Shown one piece after another: positions 35,666 through 62,151 of a DNA stretch of 64,000 nucleotides. A program made the position numbers and the translations under genes. The stretch's first letter is position 1; the number at the start of each line of letters is the position of its first letter. Under the pieces are notes generated by a model. The model was not told where the DNA came from. It did no database searches and saw nothing but the letters and a program-made list of their open reading frames with translations. Origin of the DNA: Candidatus Multivoradales bacterium. Lineage in GTDB: Bacteria; Acidobacteriota; Thermoanaerobaculia; Multivoradales; J023. The stretch covers positions 2,016,001 through 2,080,000 of the forward strand of contig CBDFLE010000005.1 of assembly GCA_965248925.1 (NCBI GenBank). Reading direction: 5' to 3'.

Positions 35666-35797
35666 CGCCCACCTATTCATAGGTAGGCGAGCAATCCTGA
35701 AGTGCTGGCGAGAGTTCTCGCATAGGCAACTCGGTGGGTGAGACGGGCGGATGGAAACTGGTACTAGGGATCCTCACTAAACGTCTTTGGAGGACCC

Positions 35798-38700
35798 ATG
35801 CCCATCCGAGTCTCGTACCCTGGCGTCTACGTTCAAGAGATTCCCGGCGGCCAGCCGGTCACCGCCGGTGTTTCCACGGCCAGCACTGCTTTTATCGACT
35901 TCTTTTCCCGCGGACCGATGGAAAAGGCCAAGCAGGTGTTCAGCATGGCCGAGGTCAATCGCAGCTTCGGCGGTTTACATTTACGCAGTGAGGCCAGCTA
36001 CGGCCTCAAGCAGTACTTCTTGAACGGCGGCCAGGAGGCCTGGATCGTCCGCGCCACCGACGGCACCGCGATCAAAGCGCTGCTCGACGTCAAGGTCAAC
36101 ACTCCCGGCTTGGATGTCCGCTTTCAATGGGCAACCGATTCCGCCGACGCCGCCGACAAGGCACAGCAGGCCGCGAAGCGCGCCGCCGAAAAGGCCAAAG
36201 ATGCGCTGACCGCGCTGGCGGCCGCGGTGAACGATCAGCAACGCACCCAGGGTGGCGGCGACTTGCGCAGCGCCACCACCGAGTCCGCCGACGAAACCTA
36301 CAAGGCGACCGCCGCCACCCGAGCCGCCGCCGAGCAGGCCAAGGCATCCAGTGACGAGCTGGCCATCGCCATCGCCGCCTTGGCGGCCGCCTCCGGGCCG
36401 GTCGCCGATCGCACCGCCCAAGCCGCCGAGCACACCGCCCAGGCCGCCGCCGCCTCGAGCGATGCCGCCAAGACCACTCCGGCGGTGATCGCCGCCGCCC
36501 AGAAAGCGGTCGAGGTGGCCAAGAAGGGGCTCAGTGCGGGCCAGTCCTCGCGCACCGCGCAAACTGCCGCCAAAACCCTCGCCGACCTGCAAACCGCGGT
36601 CGACGCCGCCAAGGCGGCGATCGCCACGGTTACCGCCGAGGAGACCGCGGTTACCGACGCTGGTGACAACTTGGTCGCTAGCAAGGGTGCCGCTTACAAC
36701 GCCGCGGTCGCCGCCGAGGACGCGGTGGCGCAAGCCGATACCGCTGCTCGCGAAGCATTGAGCGTCGCCAAGACGGTCTACGAGCACCACAAAGCCGCCG
36801 GCAACGACGACGACGCCAAAGCCGCCAAGGAGGATGTCGACGCCGCTAGCGACAGCGAACAAATCACAACCCTGGCGACCGCCGCCAACGCCGCCGCCGA
36901 GGCTCAGCTTGACTCGCAAACGATCATGGAGACGGCCGACGCCACCGCTGCTGCGACCAAGGCCAAAGGCGCCGCGGACCAGGCCAAGTCAGTGATCGAC
37001 AAGGTCGAGACAATCGCCGCCAAGGGTCTCACGTCAGTGCTCACCATGGCCTCCGAGGCCGCCGACACCAGTGCCACGCTGGCGGTGAAAGAGGGTGATG
37101 GCACCGTCGGCGAGGCGGTCAAGGCGGCCAATAAGGAGATCCTCAAGGCCAATGCCGCCGCCAAGGCGGCATTGGTGGCCTGCAAGCTGACCTCCGACGA
37201 CGCTAAGGTCGCGGCCAGCTGCGTCGGCTCGGCAAAGGTCAACCTCGACGCTCGCGGCGCCATCGCCGGAGCCGAGAAAGCCGCCGCCGACACCATCGAG
37301 ACGTTGAAGGCCGCCAAAGTCATCACGGCGCAGCTCAACAAGGCCCTGATCCTTGCGCTCGATTCGACCAAGCCGGCCGTCGAGTCCGCCGCCGCCGCGA
37401 CGGCCGCGGGTGGCAATGCCGACCTCTCGATCAACGAAAAGATAAAGGCCGCGGCGGCTGCCGCCCAAGCGGCGCTCAACGCCGCCAACAACTGCGTCGC
37501 CGCTGCCGAAGCTGTCGAAAAAGCAGCCACCGAAGTGTCGAGAGTCGCTCTTCAGGCGACTACCGCTGCCGACCTGGCGGCACGGGCAGCCAAGGTTGCG
37601 GTCGCCGCCAACAAAGAGGCCAGTCAACCGCCGACCCTGCGCATCGCCGCCGCCAACGAGGGCATCTGGGGCGACAACATCCAGGTCGAGATCAAGGTCG
37701 ACGGGGCTAACTTCTCGCTGGTGGTCACCGAATACCTCACCGAGCGCGGCGTCACCCGCCAGGTGGGACAGGAGAATTACAGCAGCCTCAACCTGGAGAA
37801 GGGCGAGAACACCTACGCCATCCCGGTGGTCAACGACCAGAGCGATCTAGTGTCGCTCGACTACATTGGCCTGATGGTCTCGGGGGCCTACCCCGCCGAC
37901 ATCGATGGCGAGTTCCTCAACGGCGGCGATGATGGCGGCCACGCCGACGCCACCCAGCTGACCGGTGCCGACGGCGCCATGTCGGCGCTTGAGGATATCC
38001 AGCCCTATATCTTCAATCTGCTCAGCCTGCCTTCCGTAGCCAACATGCCGGCCGCCGAGGCCAGCGTGGCCACCGCCAATGCCCAGGTCTACTGCGGCGA
38101 GAAGCGAGCCTTTTACATTGTCGACATTCCGGAAATCGTCGACGATACCGACAAGATGCTCGAATGGGTCAACAGCTACGGCAACGCCCAGGCCTATTAC
38201 ATGGCGGTGTATTACCCTCGGTTGGTGATTCCCGATCCGCTGCAGGACTTCCGAGAACGCAATGTCGGTCCCAGTGGCACTTTGGCCGGCATCTACTCCC
38301 GCACCGACACCGCTCGCGGGGTGTGGAAAGCGCCAGCTGGAATCAACGCCGTGCTGCAAGGTGCCCAGGTGTCGTCCAAGGTCACCGACATTCAGAACGG
38401 GCTGCTCAATCCACGCGGCGTCAATGTGCTGCGGACCTTCCCCATCTACGGCAACATCAGCTGGGGAGCCCGCACACTGGCTGGTGCCGACGCACTGTCG
38501 AGCGAGTGGAAGTACATCAGTGTTCGCCGCTTGGTCAACTACATCGAGGAGAGCCTCTTCCAGAGCCTCAAATGGGCCGTCTTCGAGCCCAACAACGATG
38601 TGCTGTGGGCCAAGATCCGCTCGCAGATCGCCACTTTCCTCTCCAGCTTGTTCTCACAGGGTGCGTTCCAGGGCGCCGGCGAGGGCAGCGCCTACTTCGT

Positions 38701-38836
38701 GACCTGCGACGGCACCACGACCACGCCGGTCGACATCGAACTCGGCATGGTCAATATCGATGTCGGCGTTGCACCGGTCAAGCCGGCGGAATTCGTCGTC
38801 CTCAGAATGCAACAGATCGCTCAGGCCGCCGCCTGA
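35798..38836 (+). CDS. Contractile tail sheath protein with a ~500-aa Ala-rich insertion
   Basis: YPGVYVQE, YFLNGG..AWIVR, YYPRL, PSGTLAGIYSRTD..RGVWKAPAG, WGARTL, KYISVRR, WAVFEPN and GVAPVKPAEFVV. Confidence 0.95.
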   Translation: MPIRVSYPGVYVQEIPGGQPVTAGVSTASTAFIDFFSRGPMEKAKQVFSMAEVNRSFGGLHLRSEASYGLKQYFLNGGQEAWIVRATDGTAIKALLDVKVNTPGLDVRFQWATDSADAADKAQQAAKRAAEKAKDALTALAAAVNDQQRTQGGGDLRSATTESADETYKATAATRAAAEQAKASSDELAIAIAALAAASGPVADRTAQAAEHTAQAAAASSDAAKTTPAVIAAAQKAVEVAKKGLSAGQSSRTAQTAAKTLADLQTAVDAAKAAIATVTAEETAVTDAGDNLVASKGAAYNAAVAAEDAVAQADTAAREALSVAKTVYEHHKAAGNDDDAKAAKEDVDAASDSEQITTLATAANAAAEAQLDSQTIMETADATAAATKAKGAADQAKSVIDKVETIAAKGLTSVLTMASEAADTSATLAVKEGDGTVGEAVKAANKEILKANAAAKAALVACKLTSDDAKVAASCVGSAKVNLDARGAIAGAEKAAADTIETLKAAKVITAQLNKALILALDSTKPAVESAAAATAAGGNADLSINEKIKAAAAAAQAALNAANNCVAAAEAVEKAATEVSRVALQATTAADLAARAAKVAVAANKEASQPPTLRIAAANEGIWGDNIQVEIKVDGANFSLVVTEYLTERGVTRQVGQENYSSLNLEKGENTYAIPVVNDQSDLVSLDYIGLMVSGAYPADIDGEFLNGGDDGGHADATQLTGADGAMSALEDIQPYIFNLLSLPSVANMPAAEASVATANAQVYCGEKRAFYIVDIPEIVDDTDKMLEWVNSYGNAQAYYMAVYYPRLVIPDPLQDFRERNVGPSGTLAGIYSRTDTARGVWKAPAGINAVLQGAQVSSKVTDIQNGLLNPRGVNVLRTFPIYGNISWGARTLAGADALSSEWKYISVRRLVNYIEESLFQSLKWAVFEPNNDVLWAKIRSQIATFLSSLFSQGAFQGAGEGSAYFVTCDGTTTTPVDIELGMVNIDVGVAPVKPAEFVVLRMQQIAQAAA

Positions 38837-38870
38837 TCTCGGATCCAAGAAAACCAAGGAGGTTTTATCA

Positions 38871-39455
38871 ATGGGTACTCCCAAGAACCTACGTTCGACC
38901 ATCATGGATCCGCTGCTGAACTTCAAGTTCATTGTCAGCTGGGGCGAGGCCGGTTCGGCGAAATACGAAGTAGTCGCCGGGGTGAGCAAGTTCGGCCCGC
39001 TGTCGCGCAACACGGAAGTTGCCGAATACCGCGAAGGTGCCGATCCCTTTGTCACTCGTAAGATCCCAGGGCAGGTGAAATACGACGACATCAACCTCGA
39101 GCGCGGCATTATTCTCGATGTCGCCTTCGAGCAGTGGGCCAATAAGGTTTGGTACTACGAGCAGTCCGACGCCCTGGCCTCCAACCAGGTGTCGCTGATC
39201 GACTTCCGCAAGGACGTGCAGATTCAGCTCTGCAACCAGGCCGGCCAGATCGTCAACCAATACCTGATCTTCAATTGTTGGCCCACCAAATACCAGGCGG
39301 CGCCCGATCTCGACGCTTCGGCTGGCAACACGGTGGCGCTCGAAACCTTGACCTTGGCCAACGAAGGCTGGGTCCGTGACGACACCTACAAGGCCGTCAA
39401 GTATCCGACCTACGCCTTGCCGGATTCGCCAACAGGTGGCTTGCCACCCTCCTGA
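38871..39455 (+). CDS. Tail tube protein (T4 gp19 / Afp1-5-like)
   Basis: AAGGAGG RBS; DPLLNFKF, EYREG, KIPG..Y..I.LERG, CWPTKY and VALETLTL..EG. Confidence 0.93.
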   Translation: MGTPKNLRSTIMDPLLNFKFIVSWGEAGSAKYEVVAGVSKFGPLSRNTEVAEYREGADPFVTRKIPGQVKYDDINLERGIILDVAFEQWANKVWYYEQSDALASNQVSLIDFRKDVQIQLCNQAGQIVNQYLIFNCWPTKYQAAPDLDASAGNTVALETLTLANEGWVRDDTYKAVKYPTYALPDSPTGGLPPS

Positions 39456-39460
39456 TCCAT

Positions 39461-40207
39461 ATGCACGCCCTCACCGCCCAAGAAGCGCTGGCGGCTTGGG
39501 AAAGAGGCCAGCGACTCGACCCTCTGGGCCGATCGCTGGCCTTTCTTTCGGTCGCCCTGCCGGCCGTCGAGCGCCTACGCATTCTGCAGCTGCCGGTAGG
39601 GCAGCGCGACGCTCTGCTACTGCGCTTGCGTTTCCGCACTTTTGGGCCGGGTCTGCGAGGTTCGGTCAACTGTCCATCCTGCAACGTACCGCTGGAGTTC
39701 GCAGTCGATCTGCGTAGCTACGACGCGATCGGCCACCTACAACGAGAGATCGGCGCCCGCGAGCTGGTCGTCGAGCCCTACCGAGTGGTCTTCCGCCTAC
39801 CCAACAGTGAGGACTTTTCCGCCATCGCCGAGGGCTGCGTCGACGCCGAGAGTGGCCGCGAAGTCCTGCTCGACCGCTGCCTGCTGCACGCCTTCGAAGG
39901 CAATCAGGAAATCGCGCCGCAGCAGCTCCCCGCCGAAGTTTTGGCTCAGGTCGCCGCTGAAATGGAGAGTCTCGATCCTCTCGCCGAGCTACCGTTGGCG
40001 ATCGATTGCGGCCGTTGCGATCACTCCTCCCTGGTGCTCTTCGACATCGGCCAGTTTCTTTGGCATGACATAGCCGCCTCCGCCAGAAGCCTGCTCGAAG
40101 AAGTCCACGCCTTGGCCACCGCCTACGGCTGGGGCGAAGAGCAGATTCTCAACCTGAGCGGGGCGCGCCGCCGCTTTTACATCGAAAAGATCCCAGCCGG
40201 GAGCTGA
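39461..40207 (+). CDS. eCIS baseplate-hub / tail-assembly-chaperone-like protein with two CxxC motifs
   Basis: LPVGQRD..LL.LR..TFG, CPSC, CGRC and C-terminal EVHALATAYGW.E.QILNL..RR.FY. Confidence 0.75.
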   Translation: MHALTAQEALAAWERGQRLDPLGRSLAFLSVALPAVERLRILQLPVGQRDALLLRLRFRTFGPGLRGSVNCPSCNVPLEFAVDLRSYDAIGHLQREIGARELVVEPYRVVFRLPNSEDFSAIAEGCVDAESGREVLLDRCLLHAFEGNQEIAPQQLPAEVLAQVAAEMESLDPLAELPLAIDCGRCDHSSLVLFDIGQFLWHDIAASARSLLEEVHALATAYGWGEEQILNLSGARRRFYIEKIPAGS

Positions 40208-40212
40208 AAGCA

Positions 40213-46625
<6,413 letters not shown>

Positions 46626-46629
<4 letters not shown>

Positions 46630-49900: not shown

Positions 49901-50223
49901 AAATCGATCTAGAAATCGACCACTTGCGCCTTCCGACCGCCGCCGGCTTGCGCGGCGAGGATCTGGCCACCGCTATCGAGAGCGAGCTCGACCGGCTGAG
50001 CGAAATCTACGGTTTGCCCGCTTATGGTAGCAATGCAGGCGGGGTCGATATTGACCTGGCGTCGTTCCCGATCAACCCTCACGCTTCCATCGACCAACTC
50101 GGCGCCTCGATCGCCCGCTCGCTGATGCAGGGTTTGCATCAGAAGAGCGGCCGGGTTCCGCGAGAACTCGACAGAGGCCCTGACGCGCCCCACGATACTT
50201 CCTCCAACGAGGTAGTGCGATGA
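49897..50223 (+). CDS. Small eCIS-associated protein
   Basis: ATGA overlaps at both ends; IDLEIDHLRL..IESELDRL pattern. Confidence 0.7.
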   Translation: MKIDLEIDHLRLPTAAGLRGEDLATAIESELDRLSEIYGLPAYGSNAGGVDIDLASFPINPHASIDQLGASIARSLMQGLHQKSGRVPRELDRGPDAPHDTSSNEVVR

Positions 50224-50918
50224 GCGCCAGCGGCACCTCCACTTATCCGCCGGTGTTGCCGAAGGTCGCCCAGCGGCCGACTCCCTACAATCTGCAAAAA
50301 CGTTTCAAAGGAGCGCTGGTTTCGGTCACCAAGACCGGTAAGAAAACCACTGTACCTTTCCAATACAACCCGGCCAAACTCGACCGCACTTTGACCCCGC
50401 GAATGTACGACGGCCCCGAGGGCCAAGCCCAATTCGTGGGCGGCGCCAGTCAATCGATCTCCGTCACCGTCGAGCTGCAAGCGGTTGACACTATGGTGGC
50501 GCAGTCAAAGAAGAACAAGCTAGCCAACGCGGCCAAGGGGCTCTACGCCCACCTTGCTGCCCTCGAACTACTGCTCTACCCGGCGACCAAGGATATCGAA
50601 ACCTATCGCAACGACTTGGACAACAACGTCAAGGGCGCGGTACCGCCGCAAGCGCGACCGACACTGTTTGTTTGGGGTCCCCAGCGAGTCCTGCCGGTGA
50701 ACCTGAAGTCGATGGTGGTCAAGGAAATCCTCTTTAACATCGCGCTAAGCCCGGTGCGCGCCGAGGTCACTCTAACCATGAATGTCGAGAACGTGATCGA
50801 CACCGAGGGCGATTCCTACCAATTGCTGTTGGCCCATCTCAAGAACATGGAACAAATGCGCCAAACCCAGGGGGCCGAGGTCTTCGGTAGCAACAAGATC
50901 ACCGGAGCCCAGTACTGA
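50220..50918 (+). CDS. CIS tube-like / tube-initiator protein (Afp7 N-domain-like)
   Basis: FQYNP..L.RTL, LAALELLLYP, LFVWG..RVLPV and P.RAEV.L. Confidence 0.82.
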   Translation: MSASGTSTYPPVLPKVAQRPTPYNLQKRFKGALVSVTKTGKKTTVPFQYNPAKLDRTLTPRMYDGPEGQAQFVGGASQSISVTVELQAVDTMVAQSKKNKLANAAKGLYAHLAALELLLYPATKDIETYRNDLDNNVKGAVPPQARPTLFVWGPQRVLPVNLKSMVVKEILFNIALSPVRAEVTLTMNVENVIDTEGDSYQLLLAHLKNMEQMRQTQGAEVFGSNKITGAQY

Positions 50919-50936
50919 GTCTAAGAGCCAATAAAG

Positions 50937-51212
50937 ATGATCAAGAAATCTAGTCGCTACCACGGCTTCGACCACCATCGGCATCTAACTCCCGGTGGTC
51001 ATGAGATCCTCTATCTCGAACGTCGCTTCATTCCGCGATTGCAGACCTCCGGCAAGACCACCAACGCTCAAAGCGAACGCCTCGACCTGATCGCCGATAG
51101 AACCTTGGGCAATCCGCAGCTCTACTGGCGCCTCTGCGACGCCAACGAGGAGACCAATCCGTTCGTGCTCTCCGAACGATCCGGGCGCACCCTCAAGCTA
51201 CCCAACCTATGA
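50937..51212 (+). CDS. LysM-like small baseplate protein
   Basis: SRY, YLERRFIP and RLDLIA..LGNP.LYWRLCDAN. Confidence 0.82.
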   Translation: MIKKSSRYHGFDHHRHLTPGGHEILYLERRFIPRLQTSGKTTNAQSERLDLIADRTLGNPQLYWRLCDANEETNPFVLSERSGRTLKLPNL

Positions 51213-51225
51213 GCGGCAACCCTCC

Positions 51226-52416
51226 GTGAAGCTAAACCTCAAGGTCGGTCCCGACTCTCCGCAAGGCGCTTCTGAAGAAATGATGGCGGCGCTCAGCGCG
51301 GTCGAGGTGACCCGCGCCACCGCTGGACCGTCGGGCTTTCAACTCAGCTTCGCCACCAGCCGCTACGATCTCGACGACCCGTCCTCGGTCGAGGAGTGGC
51401 CGCTGCTCAGCGATCAGAACCTGCAACCCTGGAGCCGGGTGCAGCTGGAGGTCGACGATGGCGACTCGAAGATCGTGTTGATGGACGGTTTCATCACCCG
51501 TCAGGAAATCAATCTTGACCACAAGAGCGGCTCCAAGATAGTGGTCACCGGCGAGGATGTCAGCCTGAAGATGGATCTATTCGAGGTCTCCGCCGAGTAT
51601 GAGCAGAAGAAAACCTCCGAGATCGTCACCGCCATCCTCGGCAAGTATAGCTCGGCGGGAATCACCCAGAAGGACGTCCAGGCGCCGCAGAATGAAGTCG
51701 CCCCGACCGGCTACGTACCACAGCAGAACTGCACGGATCGCTTCTACGTCCAGCAGCTTGCCGCTCGCCACGGCTTTGAATTCTACGTCGTGCCCGGCAG
51801 CTCGGCGGGCAGCAACAATGCCTATTGGGGACCGCCGGTGACCGACGGTTCGGCGCAGGCCACCTTGATCGCCAATAAAGGACCGAAAGACACCGTGCTG
51901 TCGATGAGCCTGAGCTGCGACGCTCTGGCGCCGACTTTGGCGTATGGCCAGGTGCTGGATCTGACCAAGAACCCGGCCGAGGCAGGCGACATCGCAATTG
52001 GCAGCGCGACGAAGAAACCCGACCTCTCAAGCGGCGGCGCGATCCCTTCAACCCCCAGTCCAGGCGGCCTGGCGGCGACCCCGACAACCTACAGCCAGAA
52101 CCTCGACAAACTCGCCGTGCGCGGTCGGTTGGTGCACTACCCAGGCTTCCCCTTGGCCGAGGCGACCCAATTTGCCCAGGGCAAGACCAACCGTTCGGTC
52201 ACCGACATGGTGACCATCGAGGGAGAACTCGACAGCGACGTCCTGGGCACAGTGCTCAGCGCGCCAGGAGTGGTCGAAGTCGAGGGTTTGGGGGCGATGT
52301 ACTCCGGCGACTACTACATCAAAGAAGTTACTCATAACTTCCGCTTTGAAATCGAAACCTGGTACTACCGCCAGAAGTTTGTCCTGACCCGCGGCGGTCT
52401 GGGACTAAAAAGTTAG
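51226..52416 (+). CDS. Baseplate hub (phage late control D / gp27-like; Afp8 N-part)
   Basis: SGFQLSF, LMDGFIT, VTGED.S..MD, LA.RHG..FYV.PG and YSGDYYI..VTH. Confidence 0.82.
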   Translation: MKLNLKVGPDSPQGASEEMMAALSAVEVTRATAGPSGFQLSFATSRYDLDDPSSVEEWPLLSDQNLQPWSRVQLEVDDGDSKIVLMDGFITRQEINLDHKSGSKIVVTGEDVSLKMDLFEVSAEYEQKKTSEIVTAILGKYSSAGITQKDVQAPQNEVAPTGYVPQQNCTDRFYVQQLAARHGFEFYVVPGSSAGSNNAYWGPPVTDGSAQATLIANKGPKDTVLSMSLSCDALAPTLAYGQVLDLTKNPAEAGDIAIGSATKKPDLSSGGAIPSTPSPGGLAATPTTYSQNLDKLAVRGRLVHYPGFPLAEATQFAQGKTNRSVTDMVTIEGELDSDVLGTVLSAPGVVEVEGLGAMYSGDYYIKEVTHNFRFEIETWYYRQKFVLTRGGLGLKS

Positions 52417-52425
52417 GAATCACCA

Positions 52426-53277
52426 ATGGCCGACAACCACCTGGTCGACGTGCTCAACGATCCGCAGTGGCGCCGCGATGGGCGCTATTTCGGCAAATAC
52501 CGCGGCATCGTGCAGGACAATAAGGACCCCGACAAACTCGGCCGCATCTTGGCGACGGTGCCGGCGATTTCCGCCATGGCGAAAAACTGGGCCCTACCCT
52601 GCTCGCCCTACGCCGGCAAGGATGTCGGCCTATACACCATCCCACCGGTCGGCGCCAAAGTATGGATCGAATTCGAAGGCGGTGACCCGACGTTTCCAAT
52701 TTGGAGTGGCTGCTTCTGGCAAAAAGACGAGCCGCCGACCGAGATCGGCACCAACGCCGACGATCCGTCGCAGGTCAAGATTCTCAAGACTCGAGTGGCC
52801 AAAGTATGGATCGACGACACCGATCAGAAAGGGCAGATGGTAGTGCAGTTCAACGACTCCACCGTCGATCAGCCGATCACCGTCACCATGACCATCGACT
52901 CCACCGGCATCAAGGTTGAATGCGCGGGCGAGAACACCAGCACGGTGATCCAAACCCCCGACGACATCTCCACCGACAGCCAAACCCTGGCCACCACCAC
53001 CGCCAAGGACACCACCCTGACCGTGGAGCAGAATCTCAAAGCGACGGTGAGCCAAGACCTCACCATGCAAGCCGATGGCAAAGCCGATCTGAAGGCCACC
53101 GGTAACTTGACTTTGGAGGGGGACCAGGTGGCCGCCACCGCCCAACAAGCGATCGATCTCAAAGGCATGAACGCCACCTTGGAGGCCACCTCGGCGGTAA
53201 CCGCCAAGGGAGCCACCGCCGAGGTCAATGGCAGTGGCACCACCACCATCAAAGGTGGCATGGTTAATATCAACTAG
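52426..53277 (+). CDS. gp5/VgrG-like spike (OB-fold plus beta-helix)
   Basis: YFGKYRG.V.DN.DP..GR, WALPC.PYAG and VWIEFEGGD..PIW.G, with a Thr-rich beta-repeat tail ending IKGGMVNIN. Confidence 0.9.
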   Translation: MADNHLVDVLNDPQWRRDGRYFGKYRGIVQDNKDPDKLGRILATVPAISAMAKNWALPCSPYAGKDVGLYTIPPVGAKVWIEFEGGDPTFPIWSGCFWQKDEPPTEIGTNADDPSQVKILKTRVAKVWIDDTDQKGQMVVQFNDSTVDQPITVTMTIDSTGIKVECAGENTSTVIQTPDDISTDSQTLATTTAKDTTLTVEQNLKATVSQDLTMQADGKADLKATGNLTLEGDQVAATAQQAIDLKGMNATLEATSAVTAKGATAEVNGSGTTTIKGGMVNIN

Positions 53278-53285
53278 CGAGGACG

Positions 53286-53678
53286 ATGGTGAAGAGCAGC
53301 GATCTCGAGGTAGGTTTTCCGTTCCAGCTCGACACCCGTGGCCGGGCCTTCGATCCGGGCTACGAGGATCACGTCAAGCAATTGATCGAGCTGGTGTTGT
53401 TCACCACCCCCGGCGAGCGGGTCAACCGGCCAGATTTTGGCTGCGGTCTGCTGGAGCTGGTGTTCTCCCCGGAAACCGAGCAGGAAACCACCGTCACCCG
53501 GCATTTGGTGCAAGCGTCGCTGCAACGCTGGCTCGCCGAAGTGATCTCGGTGCGGGAAGTTGAAATCGATGTTAACGACACTAGACTCAATATCCGCATT
53601 GCATACCAACTGATCGACTTCGAAAATCAAGAGCAAGTAGCGACCTTCGAGTTTCGGGACCTGCCATGGGAGATCTGA
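53286..53678 (+). CDS. GPW/gp25 baseplate protein (Afp9-like)
   Basis: FPF and IELVLFT.PGERVNRPDFGCGL. Confidence 0.93.
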   Translation: MVKSSDLEVGFPFQLDTRGRAFDPGYEDHVKQLIELVLFTTPGERVNRPDFGCGLLELVFSPETEQETTVTRHLVQASLQRWLAEVISVREVEIDVNDTRLNIRIAYQLIDFENQEQVATFEFRDLPWEI

Positions 53679-56266
53679 ACCACAGCGATCCGCGTTTCCG
53701 CGATCAACGGCGCAAAGCGGTGGCGGCGAGTCCAACTCTGGTCGGCCTCGATCACATCGACGTCCGGCACCTCGATACCAGCACCAGCAGTGGCACAGAT
53801 TCCGCCAACGAACTGTGGGATCTGAACTTGCACTTCCTGCCCCCCAGCGAGCAGCGCCAGGACCAGCAGTTCGCGGCTTTACCCAGCCTCGTGGAAGCCG
53901 ACAACATCCGCATCGAGTTCGGCGAGAATGCCGACCCGGCGATCCATGTCCGCCAGATCATGCCGCTGGCAGATCATGTTCTGCGGGTGCGGGTAGCCCG
54001 CAACGTCAACTCGGCGACCCCCCCCGCCCACCTGCCCGCCGACCTCCATCTCGCGGCCGGCCACTTGCCGATCTACCGCTTGCGCCTGGTCGACCTGCCG
54101 ACCGTTGACCGCTTTTTTGATCAGGCCCTATTCGCTTTTCGCGACGGCACCACCGATCTCGGCCTGCCCTCTGAGCTGCCCGAGCAGCGACCCACGTTGC
54201 GGCTGCCCGAGATCGACTACCTGTCGAAGGACTACGAGAGCTTTCGCCAATTGCTGCTCGACCGCCTCAAGCGCGAGGTACCGAGCTGGCACGAGCGCAA
54301 CCCCGCCGATCTCGGGGTCACCCTGGTCGAACTGCTGGCCTACGCCGGCGACTATCTGAGCTACTACCAAGACGCGGTCTCGAGCGAAGCCTACATCGCC
54401 ACCGCCCGGCAGCGCATTTCGATCCGTCGCCACGCCCGACTGGTCGATTACCGCATGCACGAAGGGGTCAATGCCCGCTGTTGGGTGCAGATCAAGATAC
54501 TGCCCACCGAGGCCGAGTCTGGCAGCGCGGCCAGCGCCGCGCCAGAGCCCTTTGAGCTACCCGCCGGCACTGAAGTGCTGACCTCCTGCGGCCAAGTGCC
54601 AGCGATCGTGCCGCGGCTGTCGCGCGAGGAACGCAAGGCTCGGGCCGCTAGGCCGTTGGTATTTCAAACCCTATTCCCCGTCCGCCTGCACCCGCTGCAC
54701 AACCGGATAGAGATCTACACCTGGGGCGCCACCACCTACCGCCTGCGAGCTGGTGACACCCGCGCCGCGCTGGTTGGCCACTTGCCTCATTTGCACCGCG
54801 GCGATGTGCTGATCTTCGAGCGGATGCGTCTCGCTGAGACCCTGGGCGGCAACCTGGACGACCTGCCGACATCGCAGCCGGTGCGGCTGGCCCACCACCC
54901 GCGCCTATCCCTCGATCCAACCCTCGGAGATGACGGCCAGACGGTGCCGGTCACCGAGATCGAGTGGCTGGCCGAGGATGGGTTGGACCATGATCTAGAA
55001 GTCTCAGTACGGATCGGAGGCAAGGTGCGACTGCTGGCCTGCGCGCGGGGCAACAACGTCCTGGTCGACCACGGGGAAAGCCGCTATGAGGTGCTACCGC
55101 AGGTGCCCGCCAACCAACGCTACGGGCCGCGGCTGCGCCAACTCGGCCTCACCCGCCGAGTACCCTATGACTCCGAACGCGCTTCGCGCCTACCGGCCCA
55201 CGGCAACTTGGAACAGGACCCTCGCCAAGCGCTGCCGGCGCTGGAACTCTACGAACTGGCGCCGGTAGAGTTCGAGCGTTACCCCGACGGCGTCCCCTTG
55301 GAGGTTCTGGGCCGCACTCAGCGACAGGTCTGGCGGGTTCGTCATGACTTGCTGGCCAGTGATCGCTTCGGCCAAGACCTGGTCGTCGAGACTGACGATC
55401 GGGGCTACGCCCAGCTCCGCTTTGGTGACGATCGCCAAGGGCTCAGTCCCTATCCCGGCAGCCGCCTGCAGGCCGTCTACCGAGTTGGCTCGGGGCCGGC
55501 TGGCAACGTGGGCGCCTATGCCCTGCGTCATCTGGTGATTGCCAGCAGTGAGTTGGAGCGTTGCGCCGACCTCGGGTTGCGCCTCATCGAGGCTCGCAAC
55601 CAGCTCGCCGGCCATGGTGGGTTGGAGTCCGAGAACAGCGAGCTAGCGCGACACTACGCACCGCAAGCCTTGCACAGCGGTAGGCTCCGCCGCTGTGTGA
55701 CCGAGGATGACTATGCGCGGGTCGCCGAGCGCCATCCCGAAGTCGAGCGGGCGGTCTCCAGACTACATTGGAATGGCACCTCCTGGGTGGCCTTTATCTA
55801 CGTCCAACGCCCGGCATTGCGCACCCTCGACAGCCACTTGAAGCGCCGCCTGCTACGCTTCTTCGCTCCCTTCTTGCTGGCCGACTGTGAGGTCGAGATA
55901 CGCTCTCCGCGATGGGTGCCCCTCGATCTCTGTTTCTTGGTACACCCTCAGGGCTCGGCCCCGCAAGCCAGCATGCGCCAGCGCCTGGGCACTCGCGTCG
56001 AGCAGGGAGAGTTGCCCTTTCTGGCGCCGGACTACTTCACCTTCGGCAAACCGCTCTACCTGAGTGAGTTGATCACTCAGATCATGGAGTTGCCGGAAGT
56101 CAGCAGCGTCGAGGCCAAGGTGTTCAAGCGCTGGGGCGAGAGTTCGCAGGGGGAGCTCGAGCAGGGTGAAATTTCCCTCGCCCCGCTGGAAATCGCCGTG
56201 CTGCGCAACGATCCCTCGGCGCCGCATCTGGGTTCGATACAGGTACGCATTGAGGAGGAAGCATGA
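53666..56266 (+). CDS. Baseplate J-like protein 1 (Afp11-like)
   Basis: IDYLSKDYESFRQLLLD, DLGVTLVELLAY.GD.LSYYQD, LRFGD..G, YRVG.G..GNV and RCVT..DY. Confidence 0.88.
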   Translation: MGDLNHSDPRFRDQRRKAVAASPTLVGLDHIDVRHLDTSTSSGTDSANELWDLNLHFLPPSEQRQDQQFAALPSLVEADNIRIEFGENADPAIHVRQIMPLADHVLRVRVARNVNSATPPAHLPADLHLAAGHLPIYRLRLVDLPTVDRFFDQALFAFRDGTTDLGLPSELPEQRPTLRLPEIDYLSKDYESFRQLLLDRLKREVPSWHERNPADLGVTLVELLAYAGDYLSYYQDAVSSEAYIATARQRISIRRHARLVDYRMHEGVNARCWVQIKILPTEAESGSAASAAPEPFELPAGTEVLTSCGQVPAIVPRLSREERKARAARPLVFQTLFPVRLHPLHNRIEIYTWGATTYRLRAGDTRAALVGHLPHLHRGDVLIFERMRLAETLGGNLDDLPTSQPVRLAHHPRLSLDPTLGDDGQTVPVTEIEWLAEDGLDHDLEVSVRIGGKVRLLACARGNNVLVDHGESRYEVLPQVPANQRYGPRLRQLGLTRRVPYDSERASRLPAHGNLEQDPRQALPALELYELAPVEFERYPDGVPLEVLGRTQRQVWRVRHDLLASDRFGQDLVVETDDRGYAQLRFGDDRQGLSPYPGSRLQAVYRVGSGPAGNVGAYALRHLVIASSELERCADLGLRLIEARNQLAGHGGLESENSELARHYAPQALHSGRLRRCVTEDDYARVAERHPEVERAVSRLHWNGTSWVAFIYVQRPALRTLDSHLKRRLLRFFAPFLLADCEVEIRSPRWVPLDLCFLVHPQGSAPQASMRQRLGTRVEQGELPFLAPDYFTFGKPLYLSELITQIMELPEVSSVEAKVFKRWGESSQGELEQGEISLAPLEIAVLRNDPSAPHLGSIQVRIEEEA

Positions 56267-59200
56267 GGGAGCAGCAACCACCGCCCCTCCCCGCCGCGGC
56301 CACCGCGCCGAGCCCCGACTCGCGGTTGGCTAACCCACCAGGGCAGCGTCAGCTGATTCACCGCATCGGCGACTACTACAGCTTCTACGACTCCATGTTG
56401 CACTGCCTGGCCCGCCAGGGCCGGCATCCGTTGACCACCACCGTGCCTTGGGTTGAAGACGCCGAGGACCAAAAAACTCGTGCCGAGCAGCCCCGCAGCG
56501 TCCTTGGCGAACAACGCACCGCCACTGGCAAGGGCCGCATCTGGCTCAACCTGTCGCAGGCCGACAATTGGATCCTCGGCTTACTCAGGTCGTGGGCGAC
56601 GATCGGCGAGATTCTCGCTTTCTATCAAGAGCGGCTGATCAACGAAGGCTACTTGCGCACCGCCCGCGAGCGGCGTTCGGTACACGAGCTGGCGCGATTG
56701 CTCGACTACCGGCCGCGGCCGGCGGTGGCCGGTGCCACCGAGTTGGCCTTCGACACCACCGATGTCGAGGGCTTGCCGCGAGACATCGCACTGGTCGCCA
56801 GCACCCCGGTCGACAGTGTGCCCCCCGAGGGCGCCGAACCGCAGAGCTTCGAGACCTCCGGCCCACTAGTGGCCCGCGCCGACTGGAATCGGCTGGGGGA
56901 AGCCGCGCCGGCTCGCCCCCTACCCTTGGAACTTGACAACGGCGCCAACCGCCTAGGTCTAGCCAACCAAGCGCGGTGGCCCGATATCGGTTCGGGGATA
57001 CTGATCCGCGGCCGGCAAAACAACGAGGAGCGCCTCTTCTACCGCCCGGTCGCGGCGCTCGAAGATCCCGCCGCGAAGCTTCCGGGCAAGGATCTGGTGT
57101 GGAGCGAGGCCGTCGAACTACAGCCCGCGGAACCGCCTCTCGGCGACCTAGAGGTCTACGCCCTGCGCCAAGAGCTGCGCCTCTTCGGCTATGCCGCGCC
57201 ACTGTGGCCAGAGCAATCGCTCGCAGTGCGCCGCCGCTATCGCGACCTGCAAGGCGGCTTGCGGGTGCTCCAAGACGGTAGCTGGCGCGCGACCCACGGC
57301 AGTCTGCCGGAGGCCGAAATCCGCTGCCTGGTCTACAGCCCCGACGGACACCTCTTCGCCGGCACCAGCGGCCAAGGCATCTGGCGCCTGAGCGCGGGTG
57401 AGAAAAGCTGGCAAGGTCCCTCCCGTGGTCTCGAATTGGGCGACATCTGCGCTCTGACCGCCACCGACGACGGCTTGCTGATCGCCGGCACGGCAACCGG
57501 CGGAGTTTTTCACTCGACCGACGGCGGCGATGTTTGGACCCAACTCACCGGCCGCGCCCTGGGCCGCGCCCGCTGGACCCTGGTGCGCCGTTCGCGACGC
57601 CTCGACAGCTTGCCGCAGACGCCGGTGCGAGCCCTCCTATCACTGCCCACCGGCGAGGGCGCTGCCAAAGGCGCCTGGCTCTTCGCCGGCACCGACAGCG
57701 GCCTCTACCGTTCGACCGACCTGGCCAACACCTGGATGCCGTCCAACCGCGGCTTCCCGGCAGTCGACTCGGGCACCGGCGAGACGTCGACCGCGGTCAC
57801 CGCCCTGATCGTCAATCCGCTCAGCGGCGAACTCTTCGCCGCCACTTCCGCTGGCGTCTTCTCCTCCACCGACCGCGGTCGGCGTTGGCAGGCGATCAAT
57901 CTTGGTCTGCCGGAGATGGATCTGTTCAGCGAGCTGCTACCGCGGGGAGTGCGCGACTTGGCCTTGCACTACGATCGGCGGCGGCGGACTTCGACCCTCT
58001 TCGCGGCCACCACCCAGGGAATCTACCGCTCCCGCGACCGCGGCAACAACTGGCAGCTGGCCAGCAGTGGGCTCGAGATCGAGCGTGACGAGCTGCCCGA
58101 GATCACCTGCCTGGCCCTGGAGCGCAACAAAGTCACCGTCACCTCTCGCCTCTTCGCCGCCACTGCTGAACGGGTCTGGTGCTCACTTGACGAAGGGGAG
58201 AGCTGGCGGCCGGCGTCCCTCGACGCCTTACCCGGCGGCCGCGCGCTGGCGGCCAGCAGCAGCCGCGCGACGCTGGCCGCGGCTACCCCTTTCGGCGGTT
58301 TCGCCAACAATCAATGGCCGAACTTCTTTCTCTCCCGCGGCCACATCGATCTGGAACGTGAAATCCCTGCCCTGCCCGCCGACGGCTGGGTGATCCTGGT
58401 GCCCGATGCTGACCAACCGCAACCACCACCGGTGGGCATCTTCCCGCTGCTCAAGGTCAGCACCGTGCGGCGCACCGACTTCACCCTCAACACCAAGATC
58501 ACCCGCCTGCAAGTAGACCCCGACCCGGCTTTGCGGCGCTACGATCTGCGCCGCACCCGAGTGCTTGTGCATAGCGAACCGCTTCTGCTGCAGACGGGTA
58601 ACCGGGTCGATCCCAGAGACACCCTGGCCGCCCTCTGCGCCAGGCTCCGGCAGATGCCCGCCGATCGGCCAATCCTGGCTTGCGCCCTGCACTCTCCGGG
58701 CAACCATGACTCGCCAGTGCACGAAGCGGCGCAGAGCCGCGCCGAGCCGCTGGCAAACCAGGCCGCCTGGCAGTATCTTTCGAGCTCCGCCGCGCAGCTG
58801 TTGGCATCTCTGGAGAAGAGTGCCCAGACCGGCTTATTAACCCTCGCCAGCGAGCCCACCAGTAGCGCCAAGGCAGGTCAAGCGGTCGCCGTTTCGAGCG
58901 ATTCGCTGCAAGTCTTCGCCAACGTCATAAACGCCACCGAAGGGGTCACCATCCACCGCGAGGTGCTGGGCAGCGGCAACGCCGCGCAAACCCTGCAACA
59001 GTTCCCGTTAGTCGAGATACCAGCCTTTCTGCGCGGCTCGCCGGATCCCCGATCGACGGTCGAGATCCGGGTCGGCGATCAGCGCTGGAGAGAGGTGCCA
59101 AGGCTCCTCGATCAACCGCCTGAGCGCCGGGTCTATGAGCTGCGCCGCGATCACCAGGGCTTCGCCACCGTAGTCTTTGGCGATGGTGCCCACGGCGCCC

Positions 59201-60045
59201 GCCTGCCCACCGGCCAAGGCAACGTGGTGGCGACCTACCGCTTTGGCACCAGCCAACGGCCGATTCCAGCAGCCAGCGTGCGGTTGATGCACAGCCGCCC
59301 GCTCGGCCTGGCGGCGGTCACCAATCCGCGACCAGGAACCCCAGGCGCCGCCGCCGAGCCCGCCGACCAAGTGCGCAGCCAGGCGCCCAGCAGTGTGCGG
59401 ATATTTGGTCGCATCGTTTCGTTACGCGACTATGAGGACTTCGCCGCCGGCTACCCCGGCGTGGTCAAAGTACGGGCGCAACGACTGTCCGCCGCCGGCC
59501 AACCGATGGTTCACCTCACCCTGGCCACCGCCGATGCCGAGCACCGCCCACCCCGAGGTAGTTTGTTCAAGTCGCAGCTGTTGGCCGCAATCGAGGCCAT
59601 TAGGGCCGCCGCCGAGCCGGTCGAGATCGCCTCTTTCAAGCCGGTCGGGCTGATCATTGAAGCCCGGATCTTGCTCCGCCAGGGCCTCGAATTCGCAGAC
59701 TTCGAACCCCATCTGCGAGCCCTCCTGGAGCAGCGCTTCTCTTTCGAGCACAGTGACTTCGGTCGCACCATCAGTCCCGCTGAAGCCATCATTACCTTGC
59801 AAGAGGTCGACGGCGTGGCGGCGGTGGATCTGGATGTTTTTCGCCGCGATGAGCCAGCAGCAGACACGGCGAAGAGGGACCCGGAGCCGCCGCGCAACGT
59901 GGTCCCCCGCGAAGCATATTGGGACCCCATCACAGCCGAGTCGCGGCCCGCTGAGCTGGTTCTCTTCCAGCGTTGCCACCTCTACGCCGCCAAGGACGCT
60001 TTGCAGCCAGAGACCCGCAGTAGCCCACCGGAGGCCACACGATGA
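56263..60045 (+). CDS. Baseplate J-like protein 2 with an inserted Asp-box beta-propeller
   Basis: FYQERLINEGYLRTARERRSV.EL, FGDG.HGARLPTG..NV.A.YR and RIVSLRDYEDF, with internal S.D.G..W repeats. Confidence 0.88.
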   Translation: MREQQPPPLPAAATAPSPDSRLANPPGQRQLIHRIGDYYSFYDSMLHCLARQGRHPLTTTVPWVEDAEDQKTRAEQPRSVLGEQRTATGKGRIWLNLSQADNWILGLLRSWATIGEILAFYQERLINEGYLRTARERRSVHELARLLDYRPRPAVAGATELAFDTTDVEGLPRDIALVASTPVDSVPPEGAEPQSFETSGPLVARADWNRLGEAAPARPLPLELDNGANRLGLANQARWPDIGSGILIRGRQNNEERLFYRPVAALEDPAAKLPGKDLVWSEAVELQPAEPPLGDLEVYALRQELRLFGYAAPLWPEQSLAVRRRYRDLQGGLRVLQDGSWRATHGSLPEAEIRCLVYSPDGHLFAGTSGQGIWRLSAGEKSWQGPSRGLELGDICALTATDDGLLIAGTATGGVFHSTDGGDVWTQLTGRALGRARWTLVRRSRRLDSLPQTPVRALLSLPTGEGAAKGAWLFAGTDSGLYRSTDLANTWMPSNRGFPAVDSGTGETSTAVTALIVNPLSGELFAATSAGVFSSTDRGRRWQAINLGLPEMDLFSELLPRGVRDLALHYDRRRRTSTLFAATTQGIYRSRDRGNNWQLASSGLEIERDELPEITCLALERNKVTVTSRLFAATAERVWCSLDEGESWRPASLDALPGGRALAASSSRATLAAATPFGGFANNQWPNFFLSRGHIDLEREIPALPADGWVILVPDADQPQPPPVGIFPLLKVSTVRRTDFTLNTKITRLQVDPDPALRRYDLRRTRVLVHSEPLLLQTGNRVDPRDTLAALCARLRQMPADRPILACALHSPGNHDSPVHEAAQSRAEPLANQAAWQYLSSSAAQLLASLEKSAQTGLLTLASEPTSSAKAGQAVAVSSDSLQVFANVINATEGVTIHREVLGSGNAAQTLQQFPLVEIPAFLRGSPDPRSTVEIRVGDQRWREVPRLLDQPPERRVYELRRDHQGFATVVFGDGAHGARLPTGQGNVVATYRFGTSQRPIPAASVRLMHSRPLGLAAVTNPRPGTPGAAAEPADQVRSQAPSSVRIFGRIVSLRDYEDFAAGYPGVVKVRAQRLSAAGQPMVHLTLATADAEHRPPRGSLFKSQLLAAIEAIRAAAEPVEIASFKPVGLIIEARILLRQGLEFADFEPHLRALLEQRFSFEHSDFGRTISPAEAIITLQEVDGVAAVDLDVFRRDEPAADTAKRDPEPPRNVVPREAYWDPITAESRPAELVLFQRCHLYAAKDALQPETRSSPPEATR

Positions 60046-62138
60046 ATACCCATTCTCGCCTCTACGACCTGCTGCCGGCCTATGTCCGCTTCCAAGACCA
60101 GCAGCGGCGCGATCCGGAGATGGGCATCGCCCCTCTCGAAGCTCTGATCCGCGCGCTCGAAGCCTCGTTCGACGCCATCGAAGAGAACATCGGTACCCTC
60201 TACGACGGCTGGTTCATCGAGACCTGCGAGGATTGGCGGATCCCCTACATCGCCGATCTGCTCGGTGTTCGCGGTCTCGAAGACATCGGCGCCTTGATTC
60301 CCAGCCAGCGTACGCGGGTGGCCAACACCATCGCTTACCGGCGACGCAAGGGGACCCCGGCGGTGCTCGGCCAGGCGGCGCGAGACAACACCGGCTGGCC
60401 CTGCCACATCAAGGTCTTTCGCGACTTCTTGGCGATCACCCAGGCGGTGTCCAGCCCGCGCCTCGACCGCGGTCGTTGGGTCGATCTGCGGCAGCGTCAA
60501 GCGTTGGCCCGGCTGCGCACACCCTTCGATCCCGTGGCCCGCACGGTCGACCTGCGTAGCGGTCCACCGCGGGTCGCTGCCGAGGCCAGCGGCGGCTACC
60601 ATCCCTATCGCCTGGGGCTGACCTTCTGGCGCCTCTCGAGCTACCCCATGCGGCAGCTGCAAGCACGACCCAGCCGCCGCGATCCGGGCCACTTCTACCG
60701 CTGCCATCCGGCGGCGGTAGATTCGCCCCTGTTCAATCCGCCGCGCACCCCCACGGGCACCCCCCGCGACCCGACTCGCTACCTGCCGCTGCGGGTCAAC
60801 CGCGGCCTGCTGAGAGCCGAACTCAGCGCCGCGCGGCTACCCGCCGGCGAGCGACCCACGGTCCGGATCCAGGTGCAAGACAGCCCCTCCGCGGCCCTAG
60901 CAACGGTGCCGAACTCGCGCATCGCGGTCGGCGACCTGAGCACCTGGCAAGTGCCGAAGGCGGAGCTTATGATTGACCCGGAGAACGGCCGCCTGGCCTT
61001 TGCCGAGCCCAACCCAGAGCGCATCGTCAAGGTTGACTGCTGCTTTGGCATGGCGGCCGATCTCGGCGGTGGCCCCTATCCGCGACCCAGCGTGCGCGGG
61101 CCGGTGGAGCCGCAGACCTGGCAGGCGATCATCGATCGAGCCCAGCTCTCTGACGATCTGCCGGAGCGGCAGCAAGTGGAGCGTTTCTCCTCACTGCGGC
61201 AAGCGATCGACGCCTGGCGGGCAGCCGGCAAACCCGCGGCAGCGCTTCTCCGGATCCATGACAGCGACCTGCATCCGATCGGCGATATAGCGCTTGAGCT
61301 ACCCAAGGACTGCCAGCTGACGCTGCGCGCCGAAGAGCGGTGCTGGCCACTACTGGTCGGCAAGCTCGAAATCAGCGGCGACGCGGGCAGCCGTTTGCGC
61401 CTCGATGGCTTGGTCCTCGAAGGCAAAGTACAGCTCGGTGACAAGGTCTCGCTGGAGATCGAACATTGCACCCTGAAACGAGACAGCCGGGCCGCCGATC
61501 AGCCAACTAGTGATCTCTCGGACACCGTGCTTGAGCGCCCTCGCGACGGGGTCGACACGAGGGTCTCCATCCGCCACTCAAGGATCCTCGGCGAGCTGCG
61601 TCTGAGCGCCGAGCTGAACCACCTGGAAATCGCCGACAGCGTACTCGGTAGCGTTGGCGGCGTGGCGATCAGCGGTCCGGACCAGACCTACGGCCCGGCT
61701 ACCACCCTCGAACGTTGCACCTTGCTGGGCACCGTCAAGTTGCACCAGCTGCTGGCAGCCACCAATACCCTGTTCACCGCGGCGGTAAAAATCGAGCGCT
61801 GGCGCGACGGCCAGATCCACTTTTGCTACCTCCCTCACGGTTCCCGAGTACCACCGCGGCAGCAGTCCATGGACGGACCACCGCTGATCACCGGCAGCGC
61901 CCACACCTCACCCTCGGGGGCGGTTTCAGCCAGCGCGTTCATCTCCTTGACCTACGGCCATCCAGCTTTTGCTCAGCTCAGCCTGCAATGTGGGGGCATC
62001 GACCGAGGAGGTGAGCAAGGCAACGAGATTGGCGCCTTCCACGGCCAACGCTTGGGCAACCGGCTCGCCAACCTGAACGCCGCCCTCGACGAGTTTTTAC
62101 CTAGCGGGTTCACCGCCCGAATAGCTTTCGCGACCTAG
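60042..62138 (+). CDS. eCIS baseplate/tail protein (P2 gpI / Afp12-like)
   Basis: LYDLLPA..R..D, LYD.WFIETC..W.IPYI.DLLG, VANTIAYRRRKGT and F.SL.YG.P...QL..E.GAF. Confidence 0.85.
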   Translation: MNTHSRLYDLLPAYVRFQDQQRRDPEMGIAPLEALIRALEASFDAIEENIGTLYDGWFIETCEDWRIPYIADLLGVRGLEDIGALIPSQRTRVANTIAYRRRKGTPAVLGQAARDNTGWPCHIKVFRDFLAITQAVSSPRLDRGRWVDLRQRQALARLRTPFDPVARTVDLRSGPPRVAAEASGGYHPYRLGLTFWRLSSYPMRQLQARPSRRDPGHFYRCHPAAVDSPLFNPPRTPTGTPRDPTRYLPLRVNRGLLRAELSAARLPAGERPTVRIQVQDSPSAALATVPNSRIAVGDLSTWQVPKAELMIDPENGRLAFAEPNPERIVKVDCCFGMAADLGGGPYPRPSVRGPVEPQTWQAIIDRAQLSDDLPERQQVERFSSLRQAIDAWRAAGKPAAALLRIHDSDLHPIGDIALELPKDCQLTLRAEERCWPLLVGKLEISGDAGSRLRLDGLVLEGKVQLGDKVSLEIEHCTLKRDSRAADQPTSDLSDTVLERPRDGVDTRVSIRHSRILGELRLSAELNHLEIADSVLGSVGGVAISGPDQTYGPATTLERCTLLGTVKLHQLLAATNTLFTAAVKIERWRDGQIHFCYLPHGSRVPPRQQSMDGPPLITGSAHTSPSGAVSASAFISLTYGHPAFAQLSLQCGGIDRGGEQGNEIGAFHGQRLGNRLANLNAALDEFLPSGFTARIAFAT

Positions 62139-62151
62139 GAGCCCAAGCCCG

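Follow-up and report, generated by a model that had tools for sequence, protein, structure and literature searches.

The sheath gene and its locus

We investigated a 64,000-nucleotide stretch of DNA (hereafter, the window) from the genome of Candidatus Multivoradales bacterium, which belongs to the class Thermoanaerobaculia of the phylum Acidobacteriota (GenBank assembly GCA_965248925.1, contig CBDFLE010000005.1, positions 2,016,001 to 2,080,000, forward strand). Here, we describe a gene in the window for the sheath subunit of a contractile injection system, in which approximately 500 alanine-rich and, by prediction, entirely helical residues are inserted into the sheath core. The open reading frame (ORF), called at 35798..38836 on the + strand, starts with ATG and encodes 1012 amino acids (aa) plus a stop codon. 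From the N-terminus, and all on the same strand, it comprises an N-terminal core that extends to the motif NGG..AWIVR (aa 1–100, 35798..36097), the Ala-rich insert (aa 105–608, 36110..37621), a beta-rich domain delimited by strands in the structural model (aa 613–706, 37634..37915), and a C-terminal core (aa 707–1012, 37916..38833). The original prediction, made from the letters of the window, had put the insert at 36130-37627, corresponding to aa 111/112–610, whereas the predicted helical region is aa 105–608; the motifs said to flank the insert, NGG..AWIVR before it and TLRIAAANEGIWGD after it, were both found.

Both sequence and fold identify the protein as a sheath. Its N-terminus (MPIRVSYPGVY...) agrees with the N-termini of homologues, and PF17482 (Phage_sheath_1C) matched aa 902–1006, encoded at 38501-38815, with an E value of 9e-13 (score 48.6 bits, cut-off 26.9). 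In HMMER alignments, the N-terminal 119 and C-terminal 226 residues aligned to the solved sheaths 8bky, 9ezm, and 8bl4 (E ~1e-56), the N-terminal core aligning to residues 6–117 of Streptomyces Cis2 (8bky). When the AlphaFold2 model was superposed with VIA-align, the matches included 9ezm (Z 23.6, 328 aligned residues, root-mean-square deviation [rmsd] 6.1), T4 gp18M (Z 22.8, 299 aligned, rmsd 3.1), and 8bl4 (Z 19.4, 224 aligned, rmsd 2.9); the superposition of the sheath fold covers model residues ~25–882, and the last 130 residues of the model are of low confidence. The core is thus conserved as in Cis2 (8bky/8bl4), Algoriphagus Alg2 (7adz), Anabaena All3325 (7b5h), and the Halogeometricum borinquense sheath (9ezm), with Z values of 17.9–23.6. 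The earlier claim that ~500 aa interrupt a sheath core was borne out, in that the core matches solved sheaths and the insert was modeled as all-helical. The subtilisin-like middle domain PF04984 had no match in the sheath at E ≤ 0.01; it is also missing from the precomputed Pfam matches of nearly all long-insert relatives, and many shorter relatives have it. Because HMMER still aligns aa 784–1009 to solved sheaths, we read the missing PF04984 as divergence of the profile region, with the fold still there, rather than as loss of the fold.

Downstream of the sheath gene, also on the + strand, are genes for a tube protein of the T4 gp19 family (38868..39455; PF06841, E 4e-36), which is syntenic in all related loci examined, and for a T4_baseplate-like protein (39461..40207; PF12322, E 4e-10). 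These are followed by a repetitive ORF of 2138 aa with abundant Pro, Thr, Ser, Ala, and Gln (40213..46629), placed at the tape-measure position and given this putative function from gene order only, a Pvc16_N cap-like protein (46626-47921; PF14065, E 5e-30), and a Pvc15-like AAA+ ATPase (47921-49900; PF00004, E 4e-25; PF22977). Genes recognized as baseplate and spike components by Pfam matches then leave the window at its edge (50220..63999), in the order CIS_tube-like, gpD-like, VgrG OB-fold, gp25, gp6-like, a 1260-aa Baseplate_J/BNR protein, Tail_P2_I, and DUF6519. Matches to PF06841, PF04717, PF04965, PF14065, and PF00004 with PF22977 were above the Pfam cut-offs; those to CIS_tube, GPD, Gp6-like, and Baseplate_J were below them. 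With tube, VgrG-like spike, gp25, gp6/J baseplate, cap, and ATPase genes adjoining the sheath gene, the locus has the gene content of an antifeeding prophage (Afp)/Photorhabdus virulence cassette (PVC)-type extracellular contractile injection system (eCIS), and a Pfam scan of 25 window ORFs revealed no phage head, portal, or terminase gene. Judged by this gene content, the ORF codes for the sole sheath subunit of a contractile injection system of the Afp/PVC type.

The order of a single sheath gene, tube gene, T4_baseplate-like gene, and long ORF was found in the window and in all seven related Ala-rich loci examined, the insert type having been looked at in 13 of the 80 related loci. The T4_baseplate-like gene follows the tube gene(s) in eight of nine related loci; the remaining locus, L011, stops just past the tube gene. 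With no second sheath gene in the locus, all subunits would bear the insert, and the original expectation of a helical insert on each subunit agrees with the all-helical prediction. The further claim that this is the only sheath gene stands for the locus but not for the genome (8.0 Mb, 6 contigs), where PF17482 had two matches, the window sheath and one minimal sheath of 364 aa. The second sheath, which has both PF04984 and PF17482, is located outside the window, ~152 kb upstream (G000:C5:1899590-1899874; L082:1495-2589, − strand) and presumably belongs to another tail-like element.

A frame of this length could also be an assembly chimera or a fused pseudogene, an explanation for which no supporting point was found and which we regard as vanishingly improbable. 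One Logan contig from each of four public runs (contigs of 5.7–13.4 kb; the runs represent one sample, possibly the source of the assembly) spans 35700-38900, including both insert junctions, with no difference, gap, or joint. A search with the C-terminal half recovered dozens of independently assembled proteins of 990–1240 aa that keep the insert, with 50–77% identity and the same order of parts, and some of the homologues sharing this architecture sit on contigs of up to 3.5 Mb. Of 18 further genomes from this family, four likewise contain long frames (1042–1093 aa). For practical purposes, a chimera or pseudogene is excluded.

Composition and predicted structure of the insert

The composition of the insert is as had been noticed by eye: in aa 111–610, Ala makes up 33.8% of the residues, Thr 8.8%, Lys 8.0%, Asp 7.0%, and Glu 5.8%, and the segment is nearly free of Pro (0.6%) and aromatic residues (F+W+Y, 0.8%). 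In the flanks, Ala amounts to 9.1% (aa 1–110) and 11.2% (aa 611–1012). Nor is the insert a simple DNA repeat, again as proposed, given that Tandem Repeats Finder detected one array only (21 bp × 2.2, 36403-36449) and that BLASTP of the insert against itself gave no off-diagonal match. The latter result led us to abandon recent duplication of a hairpin unit as the way in which the insert grew.

We modeled the full protein and the insert alone with AlphaFold2, using alignments of 30 and 7 rows, respectively. The full model has helices throughout residues 105–608, with a predicted local distance difference test score (pLDDT) of 81–94 over aa 230–570. The insert alone (pLDDT 82.6; predicted template modeling score 0.68) was modeled as 11 helices with no strand according to DSSP, the helices being 45, 39, 88, 42, 14, 22, 52, 40, 44, 16, and 64 residues long in order. 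Helix 3 is the longest, with 87–88 residues depending on the model, and ASSDELAIAIAALAAASGPVADRT marks the turn between helix 2 and this helix (87 residues in that model). Hydrophobicity along the insert oscillates mainly every 3.46 residues (z 6.2, 500 shuffles), which fits packed amphipathic helices. Partial fold matches fell in three regions of the insert, namely helices 1, 2, and the last one, insert residues ~150–320, and insert residues ~304–513. From these partial matches and the helix lengths, we infer a basal four-helix bundle that would run on into two distal bundles, with a length of ~13 nm set by the 88-residue helix.

We then asked whether the insert is a known domain, and no described family was found to match it in Pfam (no match at E ≤ 10), NCBIfam, or PHROGs. 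A search of the ESM Atlas gave no usable match, and a profile search of the PDB returned only four designed helical proteins. In the wide VIA-align search, the insert matched generic helical bundles only, the best being a designed 127-aa bundle with a Z of 14.6, a value within the background that the tool states for helical models. Other structural matches, namely TolC-like proteins, IpaB/IpaD, talin/vinculin, and trypanosome receptors, were likewise at background level. Foldseek against the PDB gave template modeling (TM) scores of at most 0.19; a match to the Umb1 particle had an E value of 0.05 and a TM score of 0.17. Among the known helical families considered, such as the chemoreceptor signaling hairpin and the ALF repeats of UmbC, none stood out from this background in the profile and fold comparisons, and Foldseek against BFVD gave no match at E ≤ 0.001.

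Sequence searches with only the insert retrieved 13 proteins of similar length, every one of them a sheath, and a tblastn search of 50,697 phage records with the insert found nothing. No stand-alone copy was found at E ≤ 0.001 among 8000 scored candidates from proteins of 30–555 aa, which is weak evidence of absence, since candidates were picked by shared words and Ala-rich words abound. Within the reach of these searches, the insert domain occurs only inside sheath proteins. In the literature searched, supplements aside, we came across no account of an injection-system sheath with a large helical or Ala-rich insert.

Conservation and distribution

Across 29 homologues, mean identity was 40% in the insert, compared with 71% in the N-terminal core and 64% in aa 613–1012. 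Only 3% of the insert columns were gapped, and identity at the non-Ala positions of the insert was 29%. Length that is kept while the sequence drifts is expected of a folded, surface-exposed domain. The best-kept part of the insert is aa 160–230 (36275..36487, + strand), which includes ASSDELAIAIAALAAASGPVADRT and has a mean identity of 60% versus 31–43% in the rest of the insert. By eye, a ASSDELAIAIAALAAASGPVADRT-like motif is also present in the short-insert relatives P0035, P0040, P0041, and P0048 (inserts of 130–350 residues), and a second better-kept turn, DAKVAA..V.S, lies around aa 467–486.

These data bear on whether the insert is instead a low-complexity spacer, largely unstructured or transiently helical, which is tolerated rather than selected and favored by high G+C. 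We consider this very unlikely: the hydrophobic periodicity is strong (z 6.2), the AlphaFold2 confidence is high for the insert (pLDDT 82.6), its length is kept with 3% gaps in 29 homologues at 40% identity, non-Ala positions are still 29% identical, and the insert persists across a deep clade, as described below. What speaks for a spacer is that G+C is 69% over 36001-37000 against ~55–66% in the neighboring kilobases, that Ala columns alone are invariant in the insert alignment, and that structure and sequence searches led only to designed or generic helical proteins.

We examined the distribution of the insert in a FastTree phylogeny of the core only, with the insert removed (123 rows). The protein sample was seeded with the window sheath, so that clade frequencies are not population frequencies, and 20 of the 254 proteins, whose N- or C-terminal match was not near-complete, were dropped before the tree. 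Among the non-Ala-rich proteins, every third was kept (111 of 167 left out). The composition thresholds for the insert classes were arbitrary, and three proteins were marked as doubtful; P0031, P0036, P0037, and P0051 (Ala 19–24%) were relabeled as helical-insert members before the tree was built, P0031 and P0051 on the basis of end-to-end alignment with the query and P0036 and P0037 by reading their sequences. In this tree, all 47 long and 13 short Ala-rich sheaths fell in one clade of 69 rows (local support 99), and the window sheath fell within an all-long subclade of 32 rows (local support 99). The Ala-rich sheaths of the clade (n = 60) have from ~130 to ~800 extra aa. The related loci are labeled mostly as Thermoanaerobaculia, with one labeled as Gammaproteobacteria. 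On this tree, the insert is a hallmark of a whole sheath clade from uncultured bacteria and not a one-off, and this sheath clade with a helical insert had previously not been described. We consider that the helical domain probably arose once at its site and then grew.

The same site takes other forms in related sheaths. Canonical relatives (e.g., P0084) have ~25 aa there, and P0128 (532 aa), which is inside the Ala-rich clade, is without the insert. A sub-branch of the clade consisting of P0079, P0081, P0091, and P0109 (928–955 aa; loci L011 and L017) has beta-repeat arrays there instead. These sister sheaths share with the window sheath the clade and an insertion after NGG..AW.IR; unlike it, their insertions are rich in Pro and aromatic residues and have precomputed Pfam matches to BNR, fn3, or Kre9_KNH. 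The range from ~25 aa to beta arrays at one site points to a permissive surface loop, or hot-spot. Two tandem sheath genes were observed in the Thermoanaerobaculia loci L011 (9935-14399) and L017 (515-4705), a long form (frames of 950 or 852 aa) and a form of ~545 aa; decoration may thus be restricted to part of the subunits there.

In addition, sheath homologues on two IMG/VR contigs (L093:580-2227 and L091:920-2792) have an Ala/Lys/Asp-rich, probably helical stretch, which in L093 is 34–37% Ala over ~200 aa and in L091 is shorter. In both, the stretch is placed after the surface beta domain and not before it, which suggests independent gains of helical decorations. L091 also has two tandem sheath genes.

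Position on the sheath and possible roles

The insert starts just past the N-terminal core and ends at the first strand of the beta-rich domain (aa 613–706). Considering its place between the core halves and the descriptions of Cis2 and Alg2, this beta-rich domain would be the counterpart of domain 3, a surface domain. In the respective papers, domain 3 of Streptomyces Cis2 is described as being on the sheath surface and too flexible to resolve, and a YPet sandwich fusion of Cis2 as retaining assembly and contraction (PMC10066040), and domains III and IV of Algoriphagus Alg2 are described as reaching outwards (PMC8894135). A survey of sheath models likewise reports additional domains away from the tube, mostly immunoglobulin (Ig)-like (PMC9230969), which accords with the earlier statement that sheath add-on domains are generally beta-rich. 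Because the insert adjoins domain 3, and on the strength of these descriptions of Cis2, Alg2, and the surveyed sheaths, the helical domain would face outward; the insert would then lie at the entry to a domain that is surface-exposed in solved single-sheath systems (PMC10066040, PMC8894135).

As described for the solved single-sheath systems, the locus has one sheath gene with extra domains between the core halves, expected on the outer surface. Unlike the solved single sheaths (484–692 aa), it has an add-on region of ~600 aa, of which ~500 are predicted to be a helical bundle, and no part of the insert aligns to them. The arrangement also follows the nested-insertion scheme of T4 gp18 and other multi-domain phage sheaths, whose outer domains interrupt the chain shortly past the N-terminal core segment and point away from the tube. 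The added mass is helical here, unlike in T4 gp18 and the surveyed sheaths, whose add-ons are mostly Ig-like or beta-rich in the survey (PMC9230969).

The same survey names exceptions, the 987-aa sheaths of the Bacillus phages AR9 and PBS1, for which mainly alpha-helical additional domains were predicted, and also mentions sheaths "encrusted by proteinaceous fibres" (PMC9230969). By this description, the window sheath is like those of AR9 and PBS1 in having ~1000 aa and an alpha-helical rather than Ig-like decoration; it differs in that theirs are jumbo-phage virion proteins, whereas here the sheath belongs to a phage-tail-like injection system. AR9 and PBS1 were not among the best 25 of 1769 phage records matching the C-terminal core. 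Judging from these predictions, alpha-helical sheath decoration is not wholly without precedent. The original statement that no characterized sheath has such an architecture holds in that we found none described in the literature searched, and needs qualification in that helical additions are predicted for AR9 and PBS1 and a whole clade shares the insert. Surface add-ons of sheaths as such are already known; the size here is unprecedented and the fold unusual.

As for function, we lean, if only slightly, toward a peripheral, flexibly attached helical decoration that would form a brush-like corona, acting as a steric or protective coat and as an interaction surface. A helical-bundle domain of ~500 residues (~50 kDa) would be inserted where the chain leaves the sheath wall and enters domain 3, and the rod of each subunit would be hinged at the surface domain, with six rods per ring. 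With every subunit of every ring decorated in this way, a dense outer corona of helical rods would result, and the helical domain would stay outside the handshake and contraction core. AlgoCIS measures 92.4 nm over 23 layers, i.e., a ring rise of ~4 nm (PMC8894135), and rough geometry with this rise and an assumed sheath radius of ~11 nm would accommodate radially directed rods in both the extended and the contracted state. Firing would force a tightly interlocked tangential coat to rearrange. The fast sequence drift, the range of 130–800 residues, and the swap for beta repeats favor a decoration at the periphery rather than a component of the contractile apparatus.

Several points weigh against this corona. 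For the orientation, the rod length, and the contacts with the core, the only guide is helix lengths and partial fold matches. AlphaFold2 may overstate its confidence on Ala-rich helices, and the alignments were shallow (30 and 7 rows). Among the sequencing runs listed, none was of RNA. In the full model, the C-terminal core has a pLDDT below 50, which makes the inter-domain geometry unreliable. The passive coat role would itself be a default reading. Finally, the conservation of aa 160–230 (60%) hints at a specific contact, which a purely passive brush would not need; chief among what a passive brush leaves unexplained is this conserved basal turn.

Ordered arrays are formed by metamorphosis-associated contractile structures (MACs) and by the type VI secretion system subtype iv (T6SSiv) of Amoebophilus. 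In line with the conserved turn, the rods may be connectors that bind the rods of neighboring particles or a membrane or envelope component, thereby forming arrays or anchoring the particles in the cell, with the sheath as the linking part in place of baseplate or fibers. In favor of connectors, all subunits would have this large insert, its length is conserved, and two of its turns are better kept (aa 160–230 and, by eye, DAKVAA..V.S at aa 467–486); moreover, the nearest solved relatives include the Streptomyces system, termed cytoplasmic in its paper title (PMC10066040), so an intracellular organized state is conceivable. We nonetheless think connectors unlikely, as no partner gene specific to Ala-rich loci was found in the flanks examined, no transmembrane or lipid-binding signature turned up (none was searched for), and known arrayed or anchored systems, such as the Anabaena injection system that is described as thylakoid-anchored, link via baseplate or fiber extensions according to the Anabaena abstract.

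Alternatively, the helical domains of axially or laterally adjacent subunits may pack into an outer lattice that clamps the extended state or tunes the energy or trigger of contraction, for which the disulfide network described for phage Milano is a proposed functional analogue. The range of the insert from ~130 to ~800 aa, its swap for beta repeats, and the insert-less P0128 are hard to square with a precise lattice, and the insert evolves faster than the core; we regard such a lattice as quite unlikely, even though a ~13 nm rod lying along the surface would span ~3 rings (87–88-residue helix, ~4 nm rise) and the base-proximal turn at aa 160–230 is conserved. The recurrence of Ala-rich helical stretches at the other sheath surface site (L093, L091) also speaks for it, as it suggests a selectable structural benefit.

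In a broader form of these ideas, which we hold to be doubtful, the rods would be an organizing device borne by the sheath: by interdigitating between subunits or particles, or by binding the envelope, they would give sheath-linked arrays or an outer lattice that gates contraction. Such a mode of organization or control is not known for any contractile injection system. The device appears to have arisen once and then to have expanded from ~130 to ~800 residues in a clade centered on Acidobacteriota.

Characterized sheath add-ons have been reported to be mostly small and beta-rich, whereas the add-on here is as large as the core, predicted to be all-helical, expected on every subunit, and shared by a clade of uncultured bacteria labeled mostly as Thermoanaerobaculia. 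Should the rods point outwards as in the brush-like corona, the particles would have approximately twice the usual diameter and would be easily recognized in tomograms of environmental or enrichment samples. An explanation of what selects for a 50-kDa coat on a contractile machine could reveal a new mode of stabilizing, spacing, anchoring, or regulating it. Furthermore, an insertion site that takes from ~25 to ~800 residues, helical or beta, may serve as a blueprint for displaying cargo or binders on engineered systems, which is consistent with the tolerated YPet sandwich fusion described for Streptomyces Cis2 (PMC10066040).

Neighboring genes and other observations

The 1260-aa baseplate-J-like protein (56263-60045, + strand) has BNR/Asp-box and sortilin-Vps10 matches in mid-protein, all below curated cut-offs, so that the baseplate may be decorated as well as the sheath. 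The 2138-aa ORF contains almost identical internal duplications, as 300-nt probes recur with 98–99% identity when spaced 1032 and 732 bp apart, and an array of (GCCAACGAG)x21 codes for (ANE)n. Only the first ~60 aa of this ORF are kept in related loci, and its counterpart in L017 has 1667 aa.

Upstream of the sheath gene are two ORFs. The first (33507-34598, + strand; 363 aa) had no Pfam, NCBIfam, or PHROG match; a counterpart with 31% identity (E 1e-21) lies directly upstream of the sheath in L002, and the ORF may be a locus-associated factor or cargo. The second (34737-35189, − strand; 150 aa), located between the 363-aa ORF and the sheath gene, is 52% identical in its N-terminal 33 residues to an ORF at the same position in L084. 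Its C-terminal part resembles, by eye, a putative SPOR-type domain.

Other upstream neighbors are ordinary chromosomal genes, encoding a sulfatase, an RHS-repeat protein, a Ser/Thr kinase with tetratricopeptide repeats, an ABC-F protein, and a TonB receptor. Encoded among these upstream genes, a 940-aa protein (3282-6104, + strand) has RHS repeats and DUF6531, and a 1008-aa protein (24309-27335, + strand) has a middle domain resembling the alpha subunit of hydrazine synthase.

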